Below are positions 1 through 11,088 of a stretch of 11,088 nucleotides of DNA, piece by piece (position 1 is the first letter of the stretch; every line of letters begins with the position of its first letter). The notes below the pieces were generated by a model. It did not search any database and was not told where the DNA came from. It saw only the letters and a list, made by a program, of their open reading frames with translations. A program made the position numbers and the translations under genes. Source of the DNA: a virus (taxonomy: Duplodnaviria > Heunggongvirae > Uroviricota > Caudoviricetes); IMG/VR virus record IMGVR_UViG_2744054872_000001, positions 1-11,088 of that record; one strand, written 5' to 3'.

Positions 1-201
1 CTGATGGAAATGGAAGCCACGCAAGCACCTTAAAATCACCATCATACACTAAATCAGTAAGTTGGCAGCATTACCCAGATACCAGTCCCCCCATATCAAG
101 AACATTGGCTAACGTATAAGCGGCTTTTTGCTGGAATGATGGATCTTGTCCTGATTTAAGCCCAAACGCTCGACGTTGCGCTTCTGTATCATTCCAACCG
201 G

Positions 202-720
202 TTAAGCGAATTCCCAAAAACGCAAATCAACGATCGCTTCTTTGAATTCCGCGTCGTCTTCAGGTGGCAATGCTGCACGGCGCATCTCCAGCATTTCCAT
301 TGCCCAACCATCAAGCGGCACGATACGCCATTGATAAGGTACTCCCTCTACAGGCACCTCAATATCGTCAATGAACGGTTCCACTTCCAGGACCTGGATA
401 TCTTCAGCCAGAGCATTCATATCGCAATCGTAATAATGCTCTTTACCGCAATGTTTACAGGTGTAGGTGAATGTCTCGACCGGTGTTTCACGGGAGCCGG
501 TAAATATCCACCATAACGCGGTAATCCGGTCCTGCGCCGTCCATGTCAGGGGATCATGTTTCGCGGGTTCAGCCAGCAAGGCTTTTAAATACGCCGTTGT
601 CTGTTGTTCTTGTTCCTCCGGTGTTATCGAGTTGAAACGCATCGCATCAGCAATATTTGGCTGACGGAACTGGATCAATTCAGTTGGCCGCGATGGTAGC
701 GGGAAAAGGGGTAAAAGCAT
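202..720 (-). CDS. Hypothetical protein (172 aa) with a Cys cluster (C-x-H-C-G-x7-C-D); last gene of a three-gene operon
   Basis: ATG at 720-718, stop TAA at 204-202; 14 bp after the upstream gene; protein-like composition. Function not recognised. Confidence 0.55.
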   Translation of the reverse strand: MLLPLFPLPSRPTELIQFRQPNIADAMRFNSITPEEQEQQTTAYLKALLAEPAKHDPLTWTAQDRITALWWIFTGSRETPVETFTYTCKHCGKEHYYDCDMNALAEDIQVLEVEPFIDDIEVPVEGVPYQWRIVPLDGWAMEMLEMRRAALPPEDDAEFKEAIVDLRFWEFA

Positions 721-734
721 CCTTGCTCCTTAAT

Positions 735-1346
735 TCAAAGAGAAAAACTAAAGCCCAGAAGGGAAGCCAAAGAACTTGAGGATTGGTTAAACGTGCTGTG
801 CAATGCGAAGGTCATTGGGAATGACTTAAATTCCGTAACCTGATCCCGCGCATAGGTGACATCGCCGGTAGTGACCGGGAATACCGTCATCTCATTTTCC
901 AGTTTGGTTAAGCCGGAAGACAGCAACCGATAAATACGCACATTGAGCAAATATTTAGACGGTATATTCCCGGTACCGTCCGGATTGATCACCCGACTTT
1001 TTGCCGTCTTAAACCAGTCCAAAACGAGGCCATCAACGGTATCCCTGACCATCATTGTTATCTGCCCAGGCGAACGCTCTGTTGGTTGAAGGATATTCCC
1101 TCCGCCGATTTTAATCGTTTCATATTCGATGCTGTAATCGTGGTAGGTAATGTCTTTGGCAAAGAAGTCTGCCCCCTCCAGTCCATCAACTTCGACAGAG
1201 AACTGCCATCCTTGCGCGAACAGCATTTTGTTCATGATGATTGACGTCAGCTTACCAACTTCCCGCTCACCAACGCCGGAGCCAAATAATGTCGTCGTTA
1301 ATGCCGAAGATACATAAGACTTTACTGAAGCAACATTAAGCCCCAT
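735..1346 (-). CDS. Hypothetical protein (203 aa), middle gene of the three-gene operon
   Basis: ATG at 1346-1344 preceded on the minus strand by GAGGGGG; 10 bp after the upstream gene. No family recognised. Confidence 0.55.
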   Translation of the reverse strand: MGLNVASVKSYVSSALTTTLFGSGVGEREVGKLTSIIMNKMLFAQGWQFSVEVDGLEGADFFAKDITYHDYSIEYETIKIGGGNILQPTERSPGQITMMVRDTVDGLVLDWFKTAKSRVINPDGTGNIPSKYLLNVRIYRLLSSGLTKLENEMTVFPVTTGDVTYARDQVTEFKSFPMTFALHSTFNQSSSSLASLLGFSFSL

Positions 1347-1356
1347 ATCAGCCCCC

Positions 1357-1964
<608 letters not shown>

Positions 1965-2053
1965 ATGTCATTTGTCCATTGTGCCAACTGTTATTATGGA
2001 TATCATAATTCATACGAATCGCGCTGCTACAGGATGTATAGCAACCTTAATAA

Positions 2054-3313
2054 TTATTTGAATATATCAGTTATAGTTGGGTAATTATACATCTTAAGCT
2101 TATCTCTAAATTTCATAGAAAATATAGGGTCTACCTTACATCTGTGTAAGAGCTTTGCAATCCTTAGCTCCCTCTCATTCATAATATCTTTGTATTCGCT
2201 ATCAATACTTTCCTGAATTTGCTGATTCTCAACAGGAGACGGTTTAGTAATTTTATCCCATTGATAAGTTGGCTTCGTAGTGTAATTTAAACTATCATCA
2301 TTTTGGAGTAATGCCTCAAGACGAGACTTAGCATTTTCATATAGCATTCTATCTTGGGGCAACATACTTGCAACACGCATTTCCATTTCAATTTCCGATA
2401 CTATCATTTCAAGTTGACGTTTTTCCGTTTCAATAGCTAAAAGAAATGGAAATAGGGCTTCTTGCTTAATCATTTGACAATTCAAATTATTGTTTATGCC
2501 ACTAAGTAATTTTGTAAATGAGAACTTCTTTAAAGGCTGCTGATTTATAACACTCTGTCTAACTGGCATTGTGTAGTTCGGTGTTTTTTCAAGTGTTTTC
2601 TTCACTTGCTCTATAGCAACATTAGGAGTGTAGAAAACAGTCTTTGCTGGAATACGTAGCACCATAAACCCCTCCTTTATTGAATATTCATCACGAATAC
2701 GATCTCGCTCTATTTGTTCTGGGGATGAATGCCATGCTGCACCATCAATTTCTATAATTTGGCGTCCATTTACGACAAAATCAAAACGATAACGCTTATA
2801 GGGCACTTGCATTTCAAGCACTAAGTCAGGAGAAACTAACATTCCAGATTTAGGTTTAAGATTAAACTCTGCAACCATTTTACGAAGAAATGCCTCCTCA
2901 GCCGGAGATTCGCAACCTTTGCAAAATATATCAAGCCAGTTTTCTGCGTCAGCGTCAACAGTTTGCCACCATGCTAACAGTCCACGTCGGTGTCCATATA
3001 ATCGTTCATCTGACGGTTTTGTTAATGGCTTTGTTAACGGTTTAACTAAGGGTTCATTTAACGGCTTTAATAACGGCTTAAATAACGGCTTATTTAACGA
3101 ATTTAATAACGATTTATTTAATGGTTTGATTGACGGTCTATTTGACGACTCAATCGGTGGTTTAGATGATGATTTGTTTTTTTTATCAAAACCTACGATA
3201 GTTATATATGCTACATATAGCATCATGCCTGCAACAGGCCATACACATGGATAAATCACGTAACACAACAGTAATAGAACAATAGTCCCAAAAAATGTTA
3301 ACTTCTTCCGCAT
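2054..3313 (-). CDS. Membrane-anchored DUF559 (Vsr-like / restriction-endonuclease-fold) domain protein, 419 aa: two N-terminal hydrophobic helices, KPLx repeat linker, DUF559-like core, coiled-coil C-terminus
   Basis: N-terminus MRKK + two hydrophobic helices followed by DKKNK; linker KPLF-KPLL-KPLN-EPLV-KPLT-KPLT; core RFDFVVNGRQIIEIDGAAWH...RDRIRDEY...GFMVLRIP matches the DUF559 signature FDF...IE.DG..H...D..RD...G..VLR from memory. About 33% GC. Confidence 0.7.
   Translation of the reverse strand: MRKKLTFFGTIVLLLLCYVIYPCVWPVAGMMLYVAYITIVGFDKKNKSSSKPPIESSNRPSIKPLNKSLLNSLNKPLFKPLLKPLNEPLVKPLTKPLTKPSDERLYGHRRGLLAWWQTVDADAENWLDIFCKGCESPAEEAFLRKMVAEFNLKPKSGMLVSPDLVLEMQVPYKRYRFDFVVNGRQIIEIDGAAWHSSPEQIERDRIRDEYSIKEGFMVLRIPAKTVFYTPNVAIEQVKKTLEKTPNYTMPVRQSVINQQPLKKFSFTKLLSGINNNLNCQMIKQEALFPFLLAIETEKRQLEMIVSEIEMEMRVASMLPQDRMLYENAKSRLEALLQNDDSLNYTTKPTYQWDKITKPSPVENQQIQESIDSEYKDIMNERELRIAKLLHRCKVDPIFSMKFRDKLKMYNYPTITDIFK
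3013..3140. repeat. Imperfect 12-bp tandem repeat (about 9-10 units, consensus near TTWAATAACGGC) encoding the KPLx linker
   Basis: ACGG/ACGA/ATGG recurs at 3013, 3037, 3061, 3073, 3085, 3097, 3109, 3121, 3133, i.e. 12-bp period from 3061 onward; in frame with the 419-aa CDS. Confidence 0.7.
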
Positions 3314-3540
3314 ACCAAACTCTTTGCATCAATAAAGGGGACTGGCTTATATAATCAAATCACATGCCCGAAATAAAAGATGACCAACACCAACGGAAAT
3401 CACACTCTAAACTAATATACATTAACACTTAATATCGCCATCACAATTGATTGATTATGCTAATTTAAAAATGATATTTTTACAGAGAATATACAGCTCT
3501 ACAAGATGACTATTACACCAAAATTTAAAAAAATCATTGG

Positions 3541-3582
3541 CAACCTTGTAGAATTGATATTAACAATCGATTCTACGGGTTG
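3541..3582. promoter_or_regulatory. Palindrome copy B: CAACC-TT-GTAGAAT-N15-ATTCTAC-G-GGTTG; candidate operator for the 419-aa gene and/or weak terminator for the upstream operon
   Basis: Core GTAGAAT 3548-3554 and ATTCTAC 3570-3576 with a 15-nt spacer, identical spacing to copy A; on the minus strand the hairpin is followed by a U-rich tract (AUGAUUUUUUUAAAUUUU). Confidence 0.45.
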
Positions 3583-3628
3583 CCATTTGCTACATAGAGT
3601 GTAATAAGAGAGGATGGTTCAACGGAAA

Positions 3629-4168
3629 TTACCACCAGCTACTGGCTTTTTTCTCCCTTGCTTTACCTTCGCTTTGCAATAAATCCTTACTCCCTGAAGA
3701 GATGTTACGATTTGCATCAGCTTCAGACTGAATCACATCAGTTCTTGCAGCCCTTTCCTTTAGCTCCTGCTCAATGAAATCGTTTTCTCTCTTAACTCGA
3801 GCAGCTTTCGCTTGTAGCTCAAGCTTCATTTTCTCAAGTTCTAATTTACGAAGCTCATCTTCATAAGCCTGATTTCGCTTTTTCTCTGCGGTCAATTCAG
3901 CTTCACGCTTCGCTCTGCGCTCATTTTCCGCCGCTATACGAGCTTTCTCGCGGGCATTTGCAGCTGCCGCAGCCCTCTCTCTTCTTAAACGTTCAGCATT
4001 TTCTTGCTTGCGAATTTGCTCTAGTCTGGCATCCTCCAGCTGCTGTTCTCTTGCTCGACCTTCACTTTCTGCCTGGGCAATAGCAGCTATTTGACTCTGC
4101 AATGAATTAGCAAATACATTGCCTGTATTCAAAGCAGCCAAACATAAATAACAAATAATTTTCTTCAT
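3629..4168 (-). CDS. Secreted (Sec signal peptide) charged coiled-coil protein, 179 aa
   Basis: N-terminus MKKIICYLCLAALNTGNVFA|NS looks like a cleavable signal peptide; the rest is E/R/K/A-rich heptad-like sequence; starts 11 bp after the lipoprotein stop. Confidence 0.7.
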   Translation of the reverse strand: MKKIICYLCLAALNTGNVFANSLQSQIAAIAQAESEGRAREQQLEDARLEQIRKQENAERLRRERAAAAANAREKARIAAENERRAKREAELTAEKKRNQAYEDELRKLELEKMKLELQAKAARVKRENDFIEQELKERAARTDVIQSEADANRNISSGSKDLLQSEGKAREKKASSWW

Positions 4169-4179
4169 ATCTTATTGAG

Positions 4180-4701
4180 TTATTTTTTATCAGGACATGT
4201 AGCATTAGGTTGAATGCGCGTTTCGTTTTCTTTCGTTGAAATCAAAGCCGCGATTCCAGGGGCAAATTGGCAAGCTCTACCAACCTGTGTAGATGTATAG
4301 ACTTTAGTACCTTCCTTGTAAGTAAGAGATACACCTTCAACAATTGATTTATCACTTACCATAGAACCAGCAGCTGCGCCAAGAGCTCCACCGCCAGCAC
4401 CACCAGCAACTGCACCCAAGGTAGAAGTTCCTTTAATATTATATCCAGCAACACTACCAGCTACTGCACCGAGAACAGCACCGAAAGTCTGAGCTGCTTG
4501 TTTATTAGCTGTATTATCAACTTTTACTTTGGCTGGGAGAACAGAGATTATATTTACTACTCTTGTTTCTTGTTTTGAATTAAGTTGGGCTGTGTCGTAC
4601 ACATCTGCCGCATATTCAGCACCATTAGACTGACACCCTGAGAGAAAAATTGCAGAAACAACCATGACGCATAAAGAAGAAATTTTAGCCATTAGAATCA
4701 T
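4180..4701 (-). CDS. SlyB-like outer-membrane lipoprotein with glycine-zipper domain (about 170 aa from ATG 4701; alternative ATG 4692; the ORF-track start at 4752 is probably too long)
   Basis: Lipobox FLSGC after a K-containing n-region; Q at +2; GxxxG zipper AVLGAVAGSVAG...AVAGGAGGGALGAAAGS; architecture resembles SlyB/Pcp family. Confidence 0.7.
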   Translation of the reverse strand: MILMAKISSLCVMVVSAIFLSGCQSNGAEYAADVYDTAQLNSKQETRVVNIISVLPAKVKVDNTANKQAAQTFGAVLGAVAGSVAGYNIKGTSTLGAVAGGAGGGALGAAAGSMVSDKSIVEGVSLTYKEGTKVYTSTQVGRACQFAPGIAALISTKENETRIQPNATCPDKK

Positions 4702-4766
4702 CCCAGAAAAAAAATATAATCCAAGAAAATCTATCACATAAGCCAAATACAAACAAGATTAATCCT

Positions 4767-4815
4767 ATTGATGTATATCAATTATTATAAAAAATACGAT
4801 CTTCATTGCTGAAGC
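4767..4815 (-). promoter_or_regulatory. Candidate promoter for the lipoprotein/coiled-coil operon with an inverted repeat ATTGAT-GTAT-ATCAAT at the predicted start site
   Basis: Minus-strand TATAAT at 4789-4784; weak -35 around 4808-4813; inverted repeat 4767-4782 directly downstream. Sequence inspection only. Confidence 0.3.
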
Positions 4816-4982
4816 TGCGTTATATTAAGTCTAAAAAAATCAACTATCGACATTATATGCTCTGCTAATAATTTACACTTGATTTAGTTGAGTTGGTTTA
4901 ATATTGACACTAACTCACTCTCTAATTATATACAATTTCCAATTTTATATGCGCATATATGGAAACCTATACCAACAGCATG

Positions 4983-5030
4983 TTGCTCTAATAAATTTGT
5001 CTTTTTAAGTCACGAATGCTATCTTTTCGC
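4983..5030 (+). repeat. Conserved upstream box, copy 1 (TTGCTCTAATAAATTT-N-TTTT-TAAGT...GAAT...TTTCG)
   Basis: About 27 of 35 core positions identical to copy 2 at 6644-6692; lies about 300 bp upstream of the 73-aa ORF and first antirepressor gene. Confidence 0.5.
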
Positions 5031-5312
5031 ATCATATTGACCTTTTAATCGTTCAGGCTTATAGTTCCGCCGTCGTAGCAAATTCTGCGACCGGGTTTAG
5101 CAGCCTGAATGATTGTGCGGACAGCCGCAGATATCCGATATTGCGGTATTTTTGTGTCCGTAAAACCGCGTTACGCCCAAATTATGGTGGGACGTGATGG
5201 GGAGGCTTCGGCCTGCTGGTTTCACAATCGCCAGTCTGCTAACCCCGTCACGTCCTGCCACCTGTTTAGCAGCGGGTAGCAGGTTGTTAAACCTGATTGT
5301 GAGGCCGTAACT

Positions 5313-5534
5313 ATGGTTAATGCCAATCCTTACGCACGCCAAGAATTCATCTGGCGTTTCTATTCCTGTAAAAAACACCACTATCACTTCGTCATCGCAG
5401 CAACAGAAGACGAAGCACGCTCTCAATTGCCTGATGGCCCCTGCATTTTTACTGCCCGTTTTTCAACTAACTCGCGCAATTCACTTAGTTACTGGAACCT
5501 CCCCTTCTCTGCCGACGTTCAGGGGGATTTATGA
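5313..5534 (+). CDS. Small hypothetical protein (73 aa), translationally coupled to the downstream antirepressor
   Basis: GAGG 9-12 nt upstream of ATG 5313; stop TGA overlaps the ATG of the next gene (ATGA at 5531-5534); more protein-like than overlapping frames. Confidence 0.4.
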   Translation: MVNANPYARQEFIWRFYSCKKHHYHFVIAATEDEARSQLPDGPCIFTARFSTNSRNSLSYWNLPFSADVQGDL

Positions 5535-6565
5535 AAAAACCTCTCGTCACCCGTAATGAAATAGCCGAAGCGATCGCCCTGCATACAACCTGTATGCCGA
5601 CACGGGAGATCCCCGGCGCAATTGCCAACTATTTCATGATAACCAGACGTTTTTATACCCGAACAGATAAGGCTGTGATCAACAAGCTACTGATAGCCGA
5701 GATCAGGGATTATTTGATTGAACAAGGACGTCTACGTTACGCAACAGTGGCAGCAGAAATGAGAAAGGAGGCACACAGAGTGACCGGTAAAAATTTGAAT
5801 ATTGAAAAACCAGCACCTGTTACGTCAGCTACGCCAACACCAGCCGTGAATGTCATCCCCAACATCGGAGACACAATCGACAGCCAAACATTGTTGAAGA
5901 TGGTCAATGAGGCACGGAAATTATGTAGCGAAAAACCAGTTCGCAATAATGATTTCATTGCCAGAGTTAAGGATGAACTTGAAGGAGAAACCTACGAAAT
6001 TTTCGTAGGTCAAAAAAACGGCGCAGAAATAGATATTATAACAATGACCTACAAACAAGCCCTGCGAGTTGCCGCGCGCGAGTCAAAAGCGGTCCGCCGT
6101 TCGCTGATCGACAAACTGGAAGAATTACAGCAGGCAAACTCCCCTACCCCATCGATCCCCCAGACATTACCAGAAGCCCTACGCCTGGCTGCCGAGTTAG
6201 CAGAACAGAAAATGCAGTTGGAACAACAGCTGGTGGCCGCAGCCCCTAAAGTCGATTTTGCCGACCGGGTATCAGTGGCCAATGGAATCCTGATCGGGAA
6301 CTTTGCAAAGGTCGTTGGACTTAAGCAAAACGCCCTTTTCTCATGGTTGCGCCAGAACGGCATTCTCATGGCTTTTGGTGCGCGCAAAAACGTACCGCGC
6401 CAACAGTACATCAACGCCGGGTATTTCACGGTGAAAGAAGTGGTGTTGGATGATGAAAATGGCTACCAGATACGGCTGACGCCCCAATTAACGGGTAAAG
6501 GCCAGCAGTGGTTAACTCGCAAGCTACTTGATGCTGGTTTGTTAAAACCAGTAGCAATAGGTTAA
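5531..6565 (+). CDS. Phage antirepressor, KilA-C (ANT-type) C-terminal domain, 344 aa
   Basis: C-terminal block LPEALRLAAELAEQK...PKVDFADRV...GILIGNFAKVVGL...LFSWLRQNGIL...RKNVPRQQYINAGYF matches the KilA-C signature and is paralogous to the next gene; SD GGGGGA before ATG. Confidence 0.8.
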   Translation: MKKPLVTRNEIAEAIALHTTCMPTREIPGAIANYFMITRRFYTRTDKAVINKLLIAEIRDYLIEQGRLRYATVAAEMRKEAHRVTGKNLNIEKPAPVTSATPTPAVNVIPNIGDTIDSQTLLKMVNEARKLCSEKPVRNNDFIARVKDELEGETYEIFVGQKNGAEIDIITMTYKQALRVAARESKAVRRSLIDKLEELQQANSPTPSIPQTLPEALRLAAELAEQKMQLEQQLVAAAPKVDFADRVSVANGILIGNFAKVVGLKQNALFSWLRQNGILMAFGARKNVPRQQYINAGYFTVKEVVLDDENGYQIRLTPQLTGKGQQWLTRKLLDAGLLKPVAIG

Positions 6566-6576
6566 CAAAAGAAAAA

Positions 6577-6603
6577 ACCTGCCAGCAAACTGACAGGTTT
6601 CTG
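6577..6603 (+). terminator. Weak hairpin (8 of 9 bp stem, CAAA loop) after antirepressor 1; A-run upstream and short T-run downstream
   Basis: ACCUGCCAG-CAAA-CUGACAGGU with one C-A mismatch; only UUU follows on the plus strand. Confidence 0.3.
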
Positions 6604-6643
6604 AGCAGATCGACCAACCCGATCTGGATCGAGTTAGAAAAAT

Positions 6644-6692
6644 TTGCTCTAATAAATTTCGTTTTCTAAGTGCAAAGAATCACCATTTCGAG
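6644..6692 (+). repeat. Conserved upstream box, copy 2, about 40 bp before antirepressor 2; followed by inverted repeat AATCACCA-N8-TGGTGATT (6678-6701)
   Basis: Direct repeat of 4983-5030; its position relative to the 6729 start suggests promoter or operator. Confidence 0.5.
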
Positions 6693-6728
6693 CTGGTGAT
6701 TGAAGGTTGATGCAAATTTGGAGAAAAA

Positions 6729-7529
6729 ATGCAACAAACATTCAATGCGGATATGAATATATCAAACCTTCATCAAAATGTCGATCCTTCAACCACTCTT
6801 CCCGTTATTTGTGGTGTTGAAATTACGACCGACCGCGCTGGCCGTTACAACCTTAATGCTCTACACAGAGCGAGCGGACTCGGTGCCCATAAAGCGCCAG
6901 CTCAATGGCTAAGAACGCTGTCAGCTAAACAGCTCATCGAAGAGCTTGAAAAAGAAACTATGCAGAATTGCATAGTTTCGTTCGAAGGCCGTGGCGGCGG
7001 CACTTTTGCCCATGAATTGCTCGCAGTGGAGTACGCTGGTTGGATTTCTCCCGCGTTTCGGCTGAAGGTAAACCAGACATTTATCGACTATCGAGCTGGA
7101 AGATTACAACCTGCTATTCCGCAGAGTCTCCCTGAAGCTCTCCGTTTGGCTGCCGAACTGGCAGAGCAAAAGCAACGGCTGGAGCAAAAAATGCTTATGG
7201 ATGCACCTAAAGTCGAATTCGCCGAACGCGTTGCTACCGCCAGCGGGGTTCTAATCGGCAACTATGCCAAAGTGCTCGGCCTGGGCCAAAACTATCTCTT
7301 CACCTGGTTGCGTGATAACGGAATTCTGATCGCAACCGGTGAACGCAGGAACGTCCCCAAACAAGAATACATATCCCGTGGATATTTCACCCTTAAAGAA
7401 ACCGTGATCGATACAAGCAATGGAAGCAGGATTTCTTTCACGACTCGTATAACCGGCAAAGGTCAGCAGTGGCTGATGAAGCGATTGCTTGATGCTGGTG
7501 TGCTGGTACCTGTCGCGGCAACGCGCTAA
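6729..7529 (+). CDS. Phage antirepressor with KilA-N N-terminal domain and KilA-C C-terminal domain, 266 aa
   Basis: N-terminal YNLNALHRASGLG...GTFAHELLAVEYAGWISPAFRLKV resembles KilA-N; C-terminal block paralogous to 6130-6565; SD GGAG before ATG. Confidence 0.8.
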   Translation: MQQTFNADMNISNLHQNVDPSTTLPVICGVEITTDRAGRYNLNALHRASGLGAHKAPAQWLRTLSAKQLIEELEKETMQNCIVSFEGRGGGTFAHELLAVEYAGWISPAFRLKVNQTFIDYRAGRLQPAIPQSLPEALRLAAELAEQKQRLEQKMLMDAPKVEFAERVATASGVLIGNYAKVLGLGQNYLFTWLRDNGILIATGERRNVPKQEYISRGYFTLKETVIDTSNGSRISFTTRITGKGQQWLMKRLLDAGVLVPVAATR

Positions 7530-7558
7530 CAGACGTAGTAAGAACCACCAGCATTGTA

Positions 7559-8059
7559 ATGCTGGCTAAAGTCACTTTCCTGAGCTGTATAACGATGAGC
7601 GATTTTACTTTTTCTGGCTATGAATTGGCCTGCTTTGTAACACACTCCGGTCTATCCCGTAGCGCCGGGCATATCCTGTCGCAATGTGCAAATCTCGCGG
7701 CAACAACCAGTGAATACTTCATTCACAAGCCTCACCGCCTGATCGCGGCAGAAACTGGTTATAGCCAATCAACCGTCGTTCGTGCATTCCGTGAAGCTGT
7801 AAACAAAGGAATCCTGTCTGTAGAGATTGTTATCGGCGATCACCGTGAACGTCGCGCTAACCTGTACCGGTTTACACCATCCTTTTTGGCCTTCGCACAA
7901 CAAGCCAAAAATGCGCTGACTGAAAGCAAATTAAAGATCTCTTCAGCGGCAACCAAGGTTAAAGCTGTTATCGCTAAGACATTGGCTTTATTTAATTTTA
8001 TATCCACACCCCATGTCAAAATGATACCCCCTCCCCCTGTCAGGATGACGTGGCAATAA
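7559..8059 (+). CDS. Putative helix-turn-helix DNA-binding protein (166 aa; start may instead be ATG 7595)
   Basis: HTH-like segment AETGYSQSTVVRAFREAVNKGIL; ATG 7559 sits inside hairpin 7548-7565, so the start is uncertain. Confidence 0.4.
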   Translation: MLAKVTFLSCITMSDFTFSGYELACFVTHSGLSRSAGHILSQCANLAATTSEYFIHKPHRLIAAETGYSQSTVVRAFREAVNKGILSVEIVIGDHRERRANLYRFTPSFLAFAQQAKNALTESKLKISSAATKVKAVIAKTLALFNFISTPHVKMIPPPPVRMTWQ

Positions 8060-8403
8060 AGAATAAGAAGTCACAAGTTAAAAAAACAAAAAGATCAGTT
8101 TCCGGCGGTGCCGGAACGTCCAGACTCAAAAAATTGACTTCATGGATCGCTGAGGCAAAAGCAAAGGCTGACAATCTGCGGTTATCCCAAAAACGCGCTC
8201 AAAAACATGAGTTCAAGCAGAAAGTAGAGGCGGCTGCGCGGAAATATGCTTACCTGAAGAACAAGCGTTCGCCTGATATTGGCGGGATATCAAACTTCGA
8301 TAACCTACCGCATTGCATGACGGTAAACGAAGCTCTTAATGCGGTTTTAGCCAAAAATAAAGATAACGATCAATGGGGTATACCGGCGGGATTCAGAGGG
8401 TGA
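8050..8403 (+). CDS. Basic lysine-rich hypothetical protein (117 aa), GTG start overlapping the upstream stop
   Basis: ORF begins with GTG at 8050 and overlaps the previous ORF by 10 nt; K/R-rich; no family recognised. Confidence 0.3.
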   Translation: MAIKNKKSQVKKTKRSVSGGAGTSRLKKLTSWIAEAKAKADNLRLSQKRAQKHEFKQKVEAAARKYAYLKNKRSPDIGGISNFDNLPHCMTVNEALNAVLAKNKDNDQWGIPAGFRG

Positions 8404-8553
8404 TAGATTGCTCTAATCTGGAGTCACCTGGCGTTTTCAGTATGGATTTTCTTTGGCGCGGTCTGGCCATTAGGGATCATGTTTGCTGCAACGTTTCTTC
8501 TGATGTGGGTATTCACCCTTCCAGGTGATTTCTATAGAAAAAAAGCCAGACAT

Positions 8554-8562
8554 TGATACAAT
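8554..8562 (+). promoter_or_regulatory. Candidate hok mRNA promoter: extended -10 TGaTACAAT, predicted start near G8569/8570
   Basis: TG at 8554-8555 plus TACAAT 8557-8562; predicted start coincides with the 5' element GGGUGCUUGAGG (8569-8580), which is complementary to the 3' element at 10289-10301. Confidence 0.4.
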
Positions 8563-8631
8563 CGCTGCGGGTGCTTGAGGCTATCTGCTTCAGGCATTAC
8601 CCGAAAAGCAGATAGAAGAAAGCCCCAGATA

Positions 8632-8690
8632 ACATTACGCGTCCTGCAAGACGCTTAACATTAATCTGAGGCAATATCTATGCTTAGCAT
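8632..8690 (-). ncRNA. sok: Sok-like antisense RNA (approximate ends) complementary to the mok SD and start region
   Basis: Minus-strand TTGACC (8724-8719), 18-bp spacer, weak -10 TAATCT (8700-8695); predicted transcript covers mok SD 8668-8671 and ATG 8680-8682; ends in hairpin GCGUC-UUGCAG-GACGC (8656-8641). Position inferred from hok/sok family architecture. Confidence 0.5.
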
Positions 8691-8886
8691 ACGTAGATTA
8701 GCCTCTTACCGACCAAAAGGTCAAGGAGAAGCAGGCTATGAAGCAGCAAAAAGCGATGTTAATCGCTCTGATCGTCATCTGTTTAACCGTCATTGTGACG
8801 GCACTGGTAACGAGGAAAGACCTCTGCGAGGTACGAATCCGAACCGGCCAGACGGAGGTCACTGTCTTCACAGCCTACGAATCTGA
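8680..8886 (+). CDS. mok: Mok-like overlapping reading frame (68 aa) that overlaps hok in another frame
   Basis: ATG 8680 with GAGG 8 nt upstream; covers hok in a different frame and ends 7 nt before the hok stop, as expected for mok. Confidence 0.6.
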   Translation: MLSIRRLASYRPKGQGEAGYEAAKSDVNRSDRHLFNRHCDGTGNEERPLRGTNPNRPDGGHCLHSLRI

Positions 8887-8893
8887 AAGGTAA
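8738..8893 (+). CDS. hok: Hok/Gef-family type I membrane toxin, 51 aa: MKQQKAMLIALIVICLTVIVTALVTRKDLCEVRIRTGQTEVTVFTAYESER
   Basis: Own translation of 8738-8893; AAGGAG 10 nt upstream; single TM helix plus the conserved RKDLCEV...R.G...V.F.AYE motif; close to HokC/HokD as recalled, exact paralog not assigned. Confidence 0.9.
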   Translation: MKQQKAMLIALIVICLTVIVTALVTRKDLCEVRIRTGQTEVTVFTAYESER

Positions 8894-8915
8894 GAGACCT
8901 GGCGGGGAGAGATCC

Positions 8916-10253
8916 CATAAGCGCTAACTTAAGGGTTGAACCATCTGAAGAATGCGACGCCTCGGTGCCTCGTTAAGACGATGCCTCGCGTTCTTCAATT
9001 GCGTTTTGTAGGCTGTCAGGGATACTGTCCCACGAATGGCCACCTGTAAGCTCCAGATGACCATTTTTGTTATTCTCCACAACGAGTTAGTTCTTCTTTT
9101 CGGATCCGGCACTTCTGGGGGGGAAATCCAGCGATGGCTGGATTATGTCGTCAATTAAAAATGCGGCGAGTAGATTAGCAAATATCCACGCTTTCGCGAG
9201 TTCAGGTTCCTTTGCACGCAAAGCATCCAGGTGCAGCAAACTTTTGAGCCGCTTAAAAGCCAGTTCAATTTGCCATCGCAGACGGTAACAATCAGCCACT
9301 TGCTCTGCTGAATATTCATCTTCCGGTAATGATGTTAGCAATAGCACATGGCCCGCTGCTTCCAGCGTTTCCGCCTGAACTACTCGTCCTTTTCGACGAT
9401 TCTCGCTGAGCAGTCGGGTTTTACTGATTAATGCTTTTTCGGGAGGAAGTGATACGGCAATGAGACGTGCCGGAAAGGGAGCTCCGGCTTTTTTATTACC
9501 TGAATTGCCTATCATTACAGTGGTTTCACCGTTCTTACCGCAATCCAGCCCGCGCAGAAAACCCATCATGTCAAAGCGCATTCCTTCTGCAGTTAACCAG
9601 CGCAATCCTCGCCAGTGAACCCGGACGATATAATCAGCTTCTCCAAAAGCAAGTGAGCGGATACATTCGGGACGCGAACCGAATCCCCGGTCAGCAATGC
9701 GTATCTCGTCTGCCGTTTGCGCAAATCGGTCCAGCCGTTCAGCGTCTCTGCTGTCGGTTAGCTCAAAATCAGTGAACTGACAGGTATGAGGATCATATCC
9801 CATATGTAGTCGCCATTCAGCGCTGCCGCCCCCGGGCGCACTGATTGCTGTTCCATCGACAAGACGCAATCTCTTTCCGCTTGTACAACCCGTAACTGCG
9901 GCGCGTACAGCAAGTGTTTGTGCGGCAAGTATGCCAAACCAGTCGGCGGCATTCCGCAGCCGCTTCAGGAGAGCCACGTCAGATAATGTTGCAACGTCAT
10001 GGAGCTGAGCCCATGCAGTGACTTCACGTAATGACATCCCCCCGGGCCGTAAGCCAGCCCCAGACGTAGCAGAGTTGCAGCATCACGAATTTCGCGGCGG
10101 CGGGTTAGAGCCCCGGCATTACGTGCCGAAGTATCCAGTTCTTCGGGCTTACCAATATGGGCCAGAATTGCTGACCAGTTATCGTGAGAGTAATTCATCG
10201 GCACGTTAAATCATATCAGGCGTAATACCACAACCCTTAAGTTAGCGCTTATG
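8916..10253 (-). mobile_element. IS186 (IS4 family), complete 1338-bp copy with terminal inverted repeats and 10-bp target duplication GGAGAGATCC
   Basis: Left end CATAAGCGCTAACTTAAGGGTTG (8916-8938) and right end CAACCCTTAAGTTAGCGCTTATG (10231-10253) are reverse complements; direct repeats GGAGAGATCC at 8906-8915 and 10254-10263; encoded protein matches IS186 InsL as recalled. Confidence 0.9.
9087..10198 (-). pseudogene. insL: IS186 transposase InsL, reading frame broken by a 1-nt deficit in a G-run (plus-strand C6 at 10038-10043)
   Basis: N-terminal 54 aa MNYSHDNWSAILAHIGKPEELDTSARNAGALTRRREIRDAATLLRLGLAYGPGG (from ATG 10198) are in one frame and MSLREVTAWAQLHD... (9087-10037) in the +1 frame; one extra G would restore a 370-aa ORF. 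Could be a true mutation or a homopolymer sequencing error. Confidence 0.8.
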
Positions 10254-10311
10254 GGAGAGATCCCCGCCACTCTTCGTGTGTCAGGTATCCTCAATGCACC
10301 CTTTCCTCTCC

Positions 10312-10338
10312 AAATAAAAAAGCTCCCGAAGGAGCTTT
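10312..10338 (-). terminator. Rho-independent terminator (AGCUCC-UUCG-GGAGCU + UUUUUUAUUU on the minus strand); likely bidirectional between the hok 3' end and the convergent minus-strand gene
   Basis: Perfect 6-bp stem 10321-10336 with tetraloop; strong U-tract on the minus strand, weaker on the plus strand. Confidence 0.6.
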
Positions 10339-10357
10339 AAAATACAAGGGATGACTC

Positions 10358-10708
10358 TTAATCCCACTCAATCCAGTTGTAGACGATACGAAGTGACGGG
10401 CGCACAGCGGCAGTCACATCTTCGGTACTAAAGTCGATTGCATCACTGTAGATTTTGCAGTCCAACATTTCAATTGTTGTAGCAGCTTTTGTCACAGCGT
10501 TAACCCCGGAAGCTTTGGATTCAGGGGTAGCAGCCATCGTGATATCAACATAGTCCTTCGCCGCAATGCGATCCTTAATGAACTGAAGAATATCGCCTTC
10601 GATAGTCTCCACGCACTGGACCTGGATTTCCCCAGAGTTTCGAATTGCTCCGTGCTGGTTGAACTTCACACCATTCGGACCATAGTCCTCCACATCCTCT
10701 CGAGTCAT
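10358..10708 (-). CDS. Hypothetical protein (116 aa from ATG 10708); the frame stays open upstream into the IS3-family end, so this may be a 5'-truncated remnant
   Basis: Stop at 10358-10360 followed by the terminator; no SD before ATG 10708; the frame is open from 10709 to the IS boundary at 10785. Confidence 0.4.
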   Translation of the reverse strand: MTREDVEDYGPNGVKFNQHGAIRNSGEIQVQCVETIEGDILQFIKDRIAAKDYVDITMAATPESKASGVNAVTKAATTIEMLDCKIYSDAIDFSTEDVTAAVRPSLRIVYNWIEWD

Positions 10709-10784
10709 TTCAGGGATTTGCGACGTGCGAACCAGTACGCTGATATCTTCATGGCCTGCAAAAGTGAGCTGGAATTCAGAAGAT

Positions 10785-11088
10785 TGAACCGCCCCGGAAA
10801 TCCTGGAGACTAAACTCCCTGAGAAAGAGGTAAACAGGATGACTAAAAATACTCGTTTTTCCCCCGAAGTCCGTCAGCGGGCGATTCGTATGGTTCTGGA
10901 AAGTCAGGATGAATATGACTCACAGTGGGCGGCAATTTGTTCCATTGCCCCAAAGATTGGCTGTACGCCGGAGACTCTGCGTGTCTGGGTTCGCCAGCAT
11001 GAGCGGGATACCGGGGGCGGTGATGGTGGGCTCACCAGCGCTGAACGTCAGCGTCTGAAAGAGCTGGAACGTGAAAATCGTGAACTGC
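10785..11088 (+). mobile_element. Left end of an IS3-family element (IS629/IS1203/IS3411-like), running off the window
   Basis: Terminal TGAACCGCCCCGG... at 10785 followed 53 bp later by an OrfA start; protein [64 protein letters not shown]...ELERENREL matches IS3-family OrfA as recalled. Confidence 0.8.
10838..11088 (+). CDS. IS3-family transposase OrfA (HTH + leucine zipper), 3'-partial at window end
   Basis: ATG 10838 with AAGAGG 8 nt upstream; open to the end of the window. Confidence 0.85.

Follow-up and report, generated by a model that had tools for sequence, protein, structure and literature searches.

The 11,088-bp stretch of viral DNA analyzed here (IMG/VR record IMGVR_UViG_2744054872_000001, positions 1 to 11,088; hereafter the window) carries a hok/mok/sok toxin-antitoxin locus whose 3′ untranslated region (UTR) is interrupted by a copy of the insertion sequence (IS) IS186. 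The hok gene, at 8738–8893 on the plus strand, is intact and encodes a 51-aa HokD-like toxin that matches Pfam HOK_GEF (PF01848) with 78.7 bits against a cut-off of 22 (E = 2.4e-22); an identical plasmid annotates it as hokD (WP_001313475.1). It is overlapped by mok, a 68-aa frame taken from the list of open reading frames (ORFs; 8680–8886, plus strand), in the same arrangement as K-12 mokC/hokC. The segment comprising the hok mRNA leader and the sok antitoxin region (8569–8743, plus strand) scores 114.3 bits with the Rfam sok model (RF01794; gathering score 59, E = 5e-26), and homology with K-12 sokC would place the antisense Sok RNA itself on the minus strand, at roughly 8612–8688. A consensus scan placed a promoter-like site for the hok mRNA at 8535–8562 on the plus strand (TAGAAA, a 16-nt spacer and TACAAT, with an upstream TG). 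Its predicted start at ~8569–8570 agrees with the conserved 5′ end GGTGCTTGAGGC, which alignment showed to be common to hokC, hokE and the hok locus at cysH-cas3. The hok stop codon ends at 8893, and IS186 starts 22 nt downstream.

IS186 and the hairpin that it splits

A read-through of positions 8400–11088, combined with a repeat search, delimited IS186 (= IS421) to 8916–10253, a 1338-bp element on the minus strand with its transposase gene antisense to hok. The element is bounded by a perfect terminal inverted repeat (23/23 bp), CATAAGCGCTAACTTAAGGGTTG, at 8916–8938 and 10231–10253, and is flanked by a 10-bp target-site duplication, GGAGAGATCC, which occurs as a direct repeat at 8906–8915 and 10254–10263 and as a single copy in the empty allele. 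The repeat finder returned a 12-nt direct repeat, GGGAGAGATCCC, the match being lengthened by the terminal C/G of the element. A 12-bp reading of the boundary was set aside, and the 10-bp reading preferred because canonical inverted repeats and element length result from it; 12-nt staggered cuts with a 1336-bp element may nevertheless be compatible with the sequence alone. Relative to K-12 IS186A and IS186B (1339 bp each), one base is deleted from the window copy, which is otherwise identical (1/1339 positions, at alignment position 208). In annotation by the Prokaryotic Genome Annotation Pipeline (PGAP) this sequence appears as "IS4-like element IS421 family transposase, frameshifted", IS421 being the name of a near-identical isoform. 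E. coli records matching IS186 at ≥80% coverage number 2,694.

The missing base falls within the transposase gene. The insL-type DDE transposase, read on the minus strand at 9087–10198, is a pseudogene according to the ORF list, its translations, alignment, Pfam and the PGAP "frameshifted" label. A 1-nt deletion at 10044–10046 (GGGG to GGG on the plus strand) breaks the 370-aa frame into ORFs of 79 aa (GTG-started; ~50 aa if counted from the native ATG at 10198) and 316 aa, the larger of which retains DDE_Tnp_1 (E = 1.1e-26). Six IS186 copies at the same site on other plasmids are 1339 bp long and intact. The window copy is an IS186 member by descent that is probably non-autonomous: its 1-nt frameshift was gained after insertion, and both ends are kept.

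Removal of the element together with one copy of the duplication restores GGCGGGGAGAGATCCCCGCC, in which a 4-nt loop is closed by a perfect 8-bp stem. The left half of this split target hairpin lies at 8901–8915 and contains the left duplication copy, and the right half lies at 10254–10268 and contains the right copy. Each element end with its half-palindrome forms part of the extended inverted repeats of 39 nt found by the repeat search. When the flanks were joined in silico they aligned without interruption to plasmid pXD35003 (NZ_CP089136, IncY), over 1137 bp and with 100% identity. This is the exact empty site, which therefore really exists. In the restored window of 9,740 bp, perfect 8+4+8 palindromes occur just four times, against 0.19 expected. 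The restored site, GGGGAGAGATCCCC, also fits the IS186 target GGGG(N6/N7)CCCC, and this motif occurs only once in the restored window, at the insertion site itself, where shuffled sequences average 0.096.

Hotspots of IS186 insertion, the lon promoter among them, had been described earlier, reportedly by SaiSree and colleagues in 2001. Lee et al. 2016 (PMC5009759) derived the motif 5′-GGGG(N6/N7)CCCC-3′ from 59 reconstructed insertions in mutation-accumulation lines, with IS186 inserting in either orientation, with just 19 N6 sites in the K-12 genome, and with the same GGGG(N6)CCCC sites re-hit by IS186 in both orientations in the course of the experiments. The hotspots treated there, at the lon promoter, menC and fimA, resemble the present site in motif, in the use of both orientations and in repeated hits per site (PMC5009759). 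They differ in that their targets are a promoter or coding genes, with selectable phenotypes, whereas here the target is a hairpin in the 3′ UTR of a toxin-antitoxin mRNA. In the mechanism that we propose, the IS186 transposase would recognize GGGG(N6)CCCC and make staggered cuts within the G and C runs, leaving the 10-bp duplication GGAGAGATCC. We also observed IS186 in hairpins with an A run, a GC stem and a T run that resemble intrinsic terminators, as in E. coli ECDA1023 and Serratia marcescens; one such junction reads AAAAAAGCCGGGGATAATTCC|IS. The GGGG(N6)CCCC motif may thus be supplied by GC-rich terminator stems at large and not by those of hok alone.

The preliminary description of this DNA, made from its letters and ORFs, had named the element as IS186, bounded the interrupted feature at 8901–10268, predicted that excision would restore a perfect 8-bp-stem hairpin and appealed to a preference of IS186 for G-run/spacer/C-run targets. 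Each of these points held: the terminal repeats and duplication are those of IS186, and the element differs from the K-12 copies at a single position; the range given corresponds to the element plus both hairpin halves; the predicted hairpin exists as the empty site of pXD35003; and the site fits the published motif. IS186/IS421 of the IS4 family is ~1338–1341 bp long and has 23-bp inverted repeats, a duplication of ~10 bp whose length is reported to vary, and the target motif given above; the window copy agrees in all four respects.

The interrupted hok mRNA

In hok of plasmid R1, the full-length mRNA has its 5′ and 3′ ends paired, and the stable, inert form of the RNA needs that pairing. The corresponding elements of the window were examined in a restored hok transcript of 426 nt (8570–8915 joined to 10264–10343) by minimum-free-energy folding, which gave −165.4 kcal/mol (z = −8.8). 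In the restored fold, the "tac" element at the mRNA 5′ end, GGUGCUUGAGG (8570–8580, plus strand), pairs with a predicted fold-back-inhibition (fbi) element, CCUCAAUGCACC (10289–10300, plus strand), which aligns with its hokC counterpart. The GC hairpin is formed, and the transcript closes with a terminal terminator hairpin, AAAGCTCCCGAAGGAGCTTT (10319–10338), which is common to the restored hok transcript and to the convergent bplB and which the terminator scan flags on the minus strand. Alignment showed the hairpin and the 5′ and 3′ elements to be conserved across four hok loci, namely those of the window, hokC, hokE and cysH-cas3. The pairing of the tac and fbi ends is predicted in the restored sequence only. 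As the window stands, the fbi element lies 1348 bp from the hok body and the end pairing by which hok/sok is recognized is not found. Judged by its parts, the window locus belongs to hok/sok by descent, but its 3′ UTR is disrupted. It has in common with R1 hok/sok a Hok/Gef toxin, an overlapping mok, an antisense sok, predicted 5′-3′ pairing and a GC hairpin downstream of the stop codon. The R1 locus, in contrast, is uninterrupted and experimentally active, whereas that of the window is split in its 3′ UTR and resides on a phage-plasmid with other maintenance systems.

The insertion leaves the hok, mok and sok parts intact but cuts the 3′ UTR in two: the stable hairpin is split, and 1.35 kb of inserted DNA now precedes the fold-back element and the terminator. 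We propose that the hok transcript is then unable to adopt the closed, inert and long-lived 5′-3′ paired form on which post-segregational killing depends. Such a locus is expected to be still transcribed and controlled by Sok, yet it would be disabled as an addiction module, with the other P1-type maintenance functions remaining on the plasmid. The split hairpin, the displaced 3′ partner and terminator and the K-12 gef literature together lead us to infer that no stable pool of inert mRNA is formed. For K-12, IS186 downstream of gef (hokC) is thought to disrupt fbi and normal processing, and gef is still transcribed and regulated by antisense RNA, with its transcript ending inside IS186 (PMC3562002).

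Alternatively, the insertion might be neutral or even activating for hok, with IS186 providing a new 3′ end in place of the lost elements, so that the addiction or defense module still works. The window hok, mok and sok parts and their promoter are intact, and in K-12, where IS186 is arranged in the same way, gef is still transcribed and antisense-regulated (PMC3562002). Inside the element, the hok strand has a terminator-like hairpin (9469–9488) with a T run after it (to 9498), a consensus match that makes it a candidate end for hok read-through transcripts in this orientation. The 5′-3′ pairing partner, however, is located beyond the element, and on the established R1 model an inert, stable full-length RNA requires it. 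We consider continued function of the module unlikely on this balance. A fold of the occupied transcript, for which the 3′ end was set arbitrarily, paired the 5′ end with element sequence by chance and was discarded as uninformative.

Recurrent occupation of hok hairpins by IS186

An association between IS186 and hok in K-12 was reportedly noted by Pedersen and Gerdes in 1999. For comparison of junctions, every locus was oriented with hok on the plus strand. In this orientation the window reads TAA-GAGACCT-GGCGG[GGAGAGATCC]-IS, with the transposase antisense to hok; K-12 hokC reads TAA-GAGCAAC-GGCGG[GGAGTGATCC]-IS186A, oriented as in the window; K-12 hokE reads TAG-CCGTTGT-GCGG[GGAGTAATCC]-IS186B, in the opposite orientation; and a hok locus at cysH-cas3 in strain KMi012 reads TAG-CCACCAC-GCGG[GGGTAAAACC]-IS, again with the transposase antisense to hok. 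A junction of the cysH-cas3 type is also found in E. albertii. Thus, in four paralogous hok loci IS186 occupies the homologous position in the hairpin, and the duplication differs from locus to locus; at least four separate insertions are therefore required.

The closest counterpart is IS186A at hokC (gef) of K-12 MG1655 (NC_000913.3, 15387–16731). It is the same element with a 1-base difference, in the same orientation and at the same 22-nt distance from the stop codon, and it lies at the same position within a homologous hairpin, GGCGGGGAG(A/T)GATCCCCGCC, with a 10-bp duplication. At both loci IS186 parts the fold-back element from hok. The two nevertheless differ in their setting, which is the chromosomal dnaJ-nhaA interval in K-12 and the repL-bplB region of a P1-like plasmid in the window; in their toxins, HokC versus a HokD-like protein; in their duplications, GGAGTGATCC versus GGAGAGATCC; and in the transposase, which is intact in K-12 IS186A and frameshifted in the window copy. 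IS186B at K-12 hokE (608007–609351) and IS186 at cysH-cas3 occupy an equivalent GGGG(N6)CCCC hairpin 21 nt past the stop, with 10-bp duplications. They are more distant from the window locus, with HokE-like proteins, duplications GGAGTAATCC and GGGTAAAACC and, in the case of hokE, the opposite orientation. A preprint on Hok diversity (10.1101/2025.08.07.668861) does not discuss IS186, fbi or inactivation.

The frequency of occupation was surveyed with query constructs in which the element was removed, present or flipped, a record being counted if a single place covered ≥80% of the query. The P1-like hok site was searched for among PLSDB plasmids, and hokC and hokE in 5,426 complete E. coli genomes. 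At the P1-like site, 217 plasmids were empty, 161 carried IS186 as in the window and 32 carried it in the opposite orientation, an occupancy of ~47%. For hokC, 3,792 genomes were empty, with 670 occupied in the K-12 orientation and 912 flipped; for hokE the corresponding numbers were 2,839, 1,655 and 273. IS186 therefore sits in the hokC hairpin of ~29%, and in the hokE hairpin of ~36%, of complete E. coli genomes. In the same genomes IS186 was found at 9,721 places in 2,221 genomes, and the hokC and hokE hairpins together account for ~3,510 of the ~9,700 matches, or roughly a third. Seven plasmid loci were read base by base, and the position and duplication were identical in both orientations. 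Both orientations also occur on two flank haplotypes, GGCGGGG.../CTCTTCGTG and GGTGGGG.../CTCTTAGTG.

A species-wide scan for the IS186 end yielded 21 stretches, many of them short contigs in non-enterobacterial assemblies with K-12-type hokC or hokE junctions, and was rejected as an occupancy survey. A crude regular expression for Hok C-termini beside these scanned ends gave no match, and the junctions were then read by eye. Short contigs in assemblies labeled Marinobacter, Kocuria and Streptosporangium and in an Aerococcus metagenome-assembled genome have IS186 ends joined to K-12-type hokE or hokC flanks or to the hok flank of the P1-like plasmids; these are most likely E. coli or plasmid contamination.

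These counts bear on the possibility that each locus received a single ancient insertion that was then inherited, vertically or horizontally, and occasionally inverted, the hairpin being merely tolerated as a site and no true hotspot. Inheritance is evident for the window: 161 plasmids share its site and orientation, its frameshift is common to a sub-lineage, and its own IS186 copy was clearly inherited within the plasmid lineage and is not a fresh insertion. The 39-nt inverted repeats, made of element ends and half-palindromes, could support inversion, and the collections are phylogenetically redundant. On the other hand, no fewer than four events are needed to account for the differing duplications of four paralogous loci, each of the three surveyed loci and each of two flank haplotypes has the element in both orientations, and in mutation-accumulation experiments IS186 re-hits GGGG(N6)CCCC sites in both orientations (PMC5009759). 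We therefore regard a single insertion per locus as quite improbable.

Import of the hok-IS186 junction as a block from a chromosomal hok, such as a K-12-type hokC, by recombination or gene conversion would explain why orientation and 22-nt spacing equal those of K-12 hokC, and IS186 copies at hok hairpins do recombine (NZ_CP020936, with unequal duplications GGAGAGATCC and GGAGTGATCC and a foreign right flank), but it is hardly credible here, since the two duplication copies of the window are identical, both flanks are 100% those of the P1-like empty allele right up to the element, the duplication is unlike those of hokC and hokE, and the toxin is HokD-like rather than HokC. In NZ_CP020936.1, IS186 (860–2198) has GGAGAGATCC on its left and GGAGTGATCC on its right, and the foreign right flank contains an extra MazG-like gene. 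This looks like homologous recombination between IS186 copies in different hok hairpins, an IS-mediated exchange of modules.

With these alternatives weighed, we conclude with high confidence that IS186 has inserted into the 3′ hairpin of hok on a P1-like phage-plasmid, that this hairpin is a recurrent target, and that the hok addiction module is expected to be disabled. A hairpin of this kind is conserved 7–10 nt past the stop codon in hok loci, and several paralogous chromosomal and plasmid loci are therefore hit repeatedly, in either orientation. Several considerations weigh against this conclusion. The collections are redundant, consisting of related genomes and plasmids, so that the counts are occupancies and do not represent numbers of events. 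Orientation could in principle switch by inversion between the 39-nt extended inverted repeats, with no second insertion. Occupancy may be high as much because insertions are tolerated at a neutral site as because the target is preferred. And the loss of post-segregational killing, which we think probable, is drawn from the R1 hok model and K-12 gef.

The preliminary description had placed an IS186 copy 22 bp downstream of hokC in K-12 as well, amid different neighboring genes, and had reasoned that this implied independent insertions at a hotspot or a paralogous locus. The distance that it gave is exact, and the hairpin there is homologous and the orientation the same. The neighboring genes do differ, dnaJ and nhaA in K-12 versus repL and bplB here, and the window holds a paralogous, hokD-like locus. 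Alignment with hokC and hokE, which it had recommended, rejected the view that this is simply K-12 hokC, because flanks, duplication and Hok protein are different. The survey of hok loci that it had also suggested found hokC, hokE and the P1-like hok all partly occupied by IS186, in both orientations. Four loci with their own duplications, both orientations at three of them and two haplotypes support independent insertions, with the hok hairpin as a recurrent IS186 hotspot.

Replicon context and significance

Over its full length the window matches E. coli plasmid pTetA_020022 (NZ_CP032890), and a few sister plasmids, at 100% identity. Annotations of these plasmids, IncY typing and matches to P1-like phages place it in the repL-bplB region of a P1-like (IncY) phage-plasmid, with the gene order c4 antisense RNA and its targets, icd, two KilAC antirepressor genes, a repL-like gene, hok and bplB, and with ParB, ParA and RepA further on. 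The P1 immunity region immI (5059–7529) identifies the window as P1-like: Rfam C4 and c4-a1b1 locate the c4 antisense RNA at 5180–5265 and the a1/b1 targets at 5059–5111, followed by icd (5313–5534) and the two genes for KilAC-domain antirepressors (5531–6565 and 6729–7529). Classical P1 (NC_005856) matches only in the bplB part and so is without this hok module, which is present and uninterrupted in other P1-like phages (phi456; Punavirus P1 MH422554).

Several further rearrangements are apparent in this region. The repL-like gene (7559–8403) is split into ORFs of 166 and 117 aa, and searches of both halves gave no Pfam match; its PGAP label is "MarR family regulator, frameshifted" here, whereas sister plasmids have "Replication protein repL" or "helix-turn-helix". 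This phage-plasmid may therefore have a defective lytic replicon. Between repL and hok (8440–8556), sister plasmids have ~143 bp extra, encoding an 81-aa hypothetical ORF (255–500 in loci L007 and L009); the window lineage keeps only a remnant of this spacer, annotated as a partial "membrane domain protein", and the indel is present or absent alike in plasmids with empty and with occupied hok sites. Downstream, an IS629/IS3-family element starting at 10785 (10785–11088 in the window) truncates the convergent bplB (10358–10708) to 116 aa, versus ~169 aa in relatives, and homology to other P1-like plasmids ends at 10784. In the parent plasmid the IS629-like element is itself split by a group II intron with ltrA (11439–14922 in locus L001). 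The left edge of the window (1–720) touches the end of an IS1, where the gene for a "morphogenetic protein" (202–720) is truncated in the parent plasmid. Together with IS186 and the IS629-like element, this IS1 brings the number of IS elements in these 11 kb of the phage-plasmid to three.

IS186, its target rule and its presence downstream of K-12 hokC and hokE are already described. The present analysis adds the hok locus of P1-like IncY phage-plasmids to those found occupied, together with a fourth, chromosomal one, and its occupancy numbers show both orientations at each site surveyed. The survey thereby puts numbers on a textbook anecdote and leaves current understanding unchallenged. For annotation, the 3′ UTR of the hok locus in this widespread family of P1-like resistance phage-plasmids is split, and it would be unsafe to take the locus for a working addiction module, and the IS186 transposase in the window lineage is a frameshifted pseudogene.

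With ~3,510 of ~9,700 IS186 matches at two chromosomal hok hairpins, and ~47% of P1-like sites occupied, we raise a broader and rather doubtful proposal, offered tentatively: the GGGG(N6)CCCC hairpin after the hok stop codon might be a family-wide landing pad for IS186, with hok loci carrying IS186 between hosts, IS186 acting as a recurrent and possibly selected silencer of hok, and the hok promoter perhaps driving the transposase where the two are co-directional. To our knowledge, this goes beyond what has been described. Hok hairpins also offer a convenient natural system for the study of IS target choice, retention and IS-mediated recombination between replicons. If the landing-pad proposal were true, hok loci on plasmids, phage-plasmids and prophages would be vehicles for the spread of IS186.

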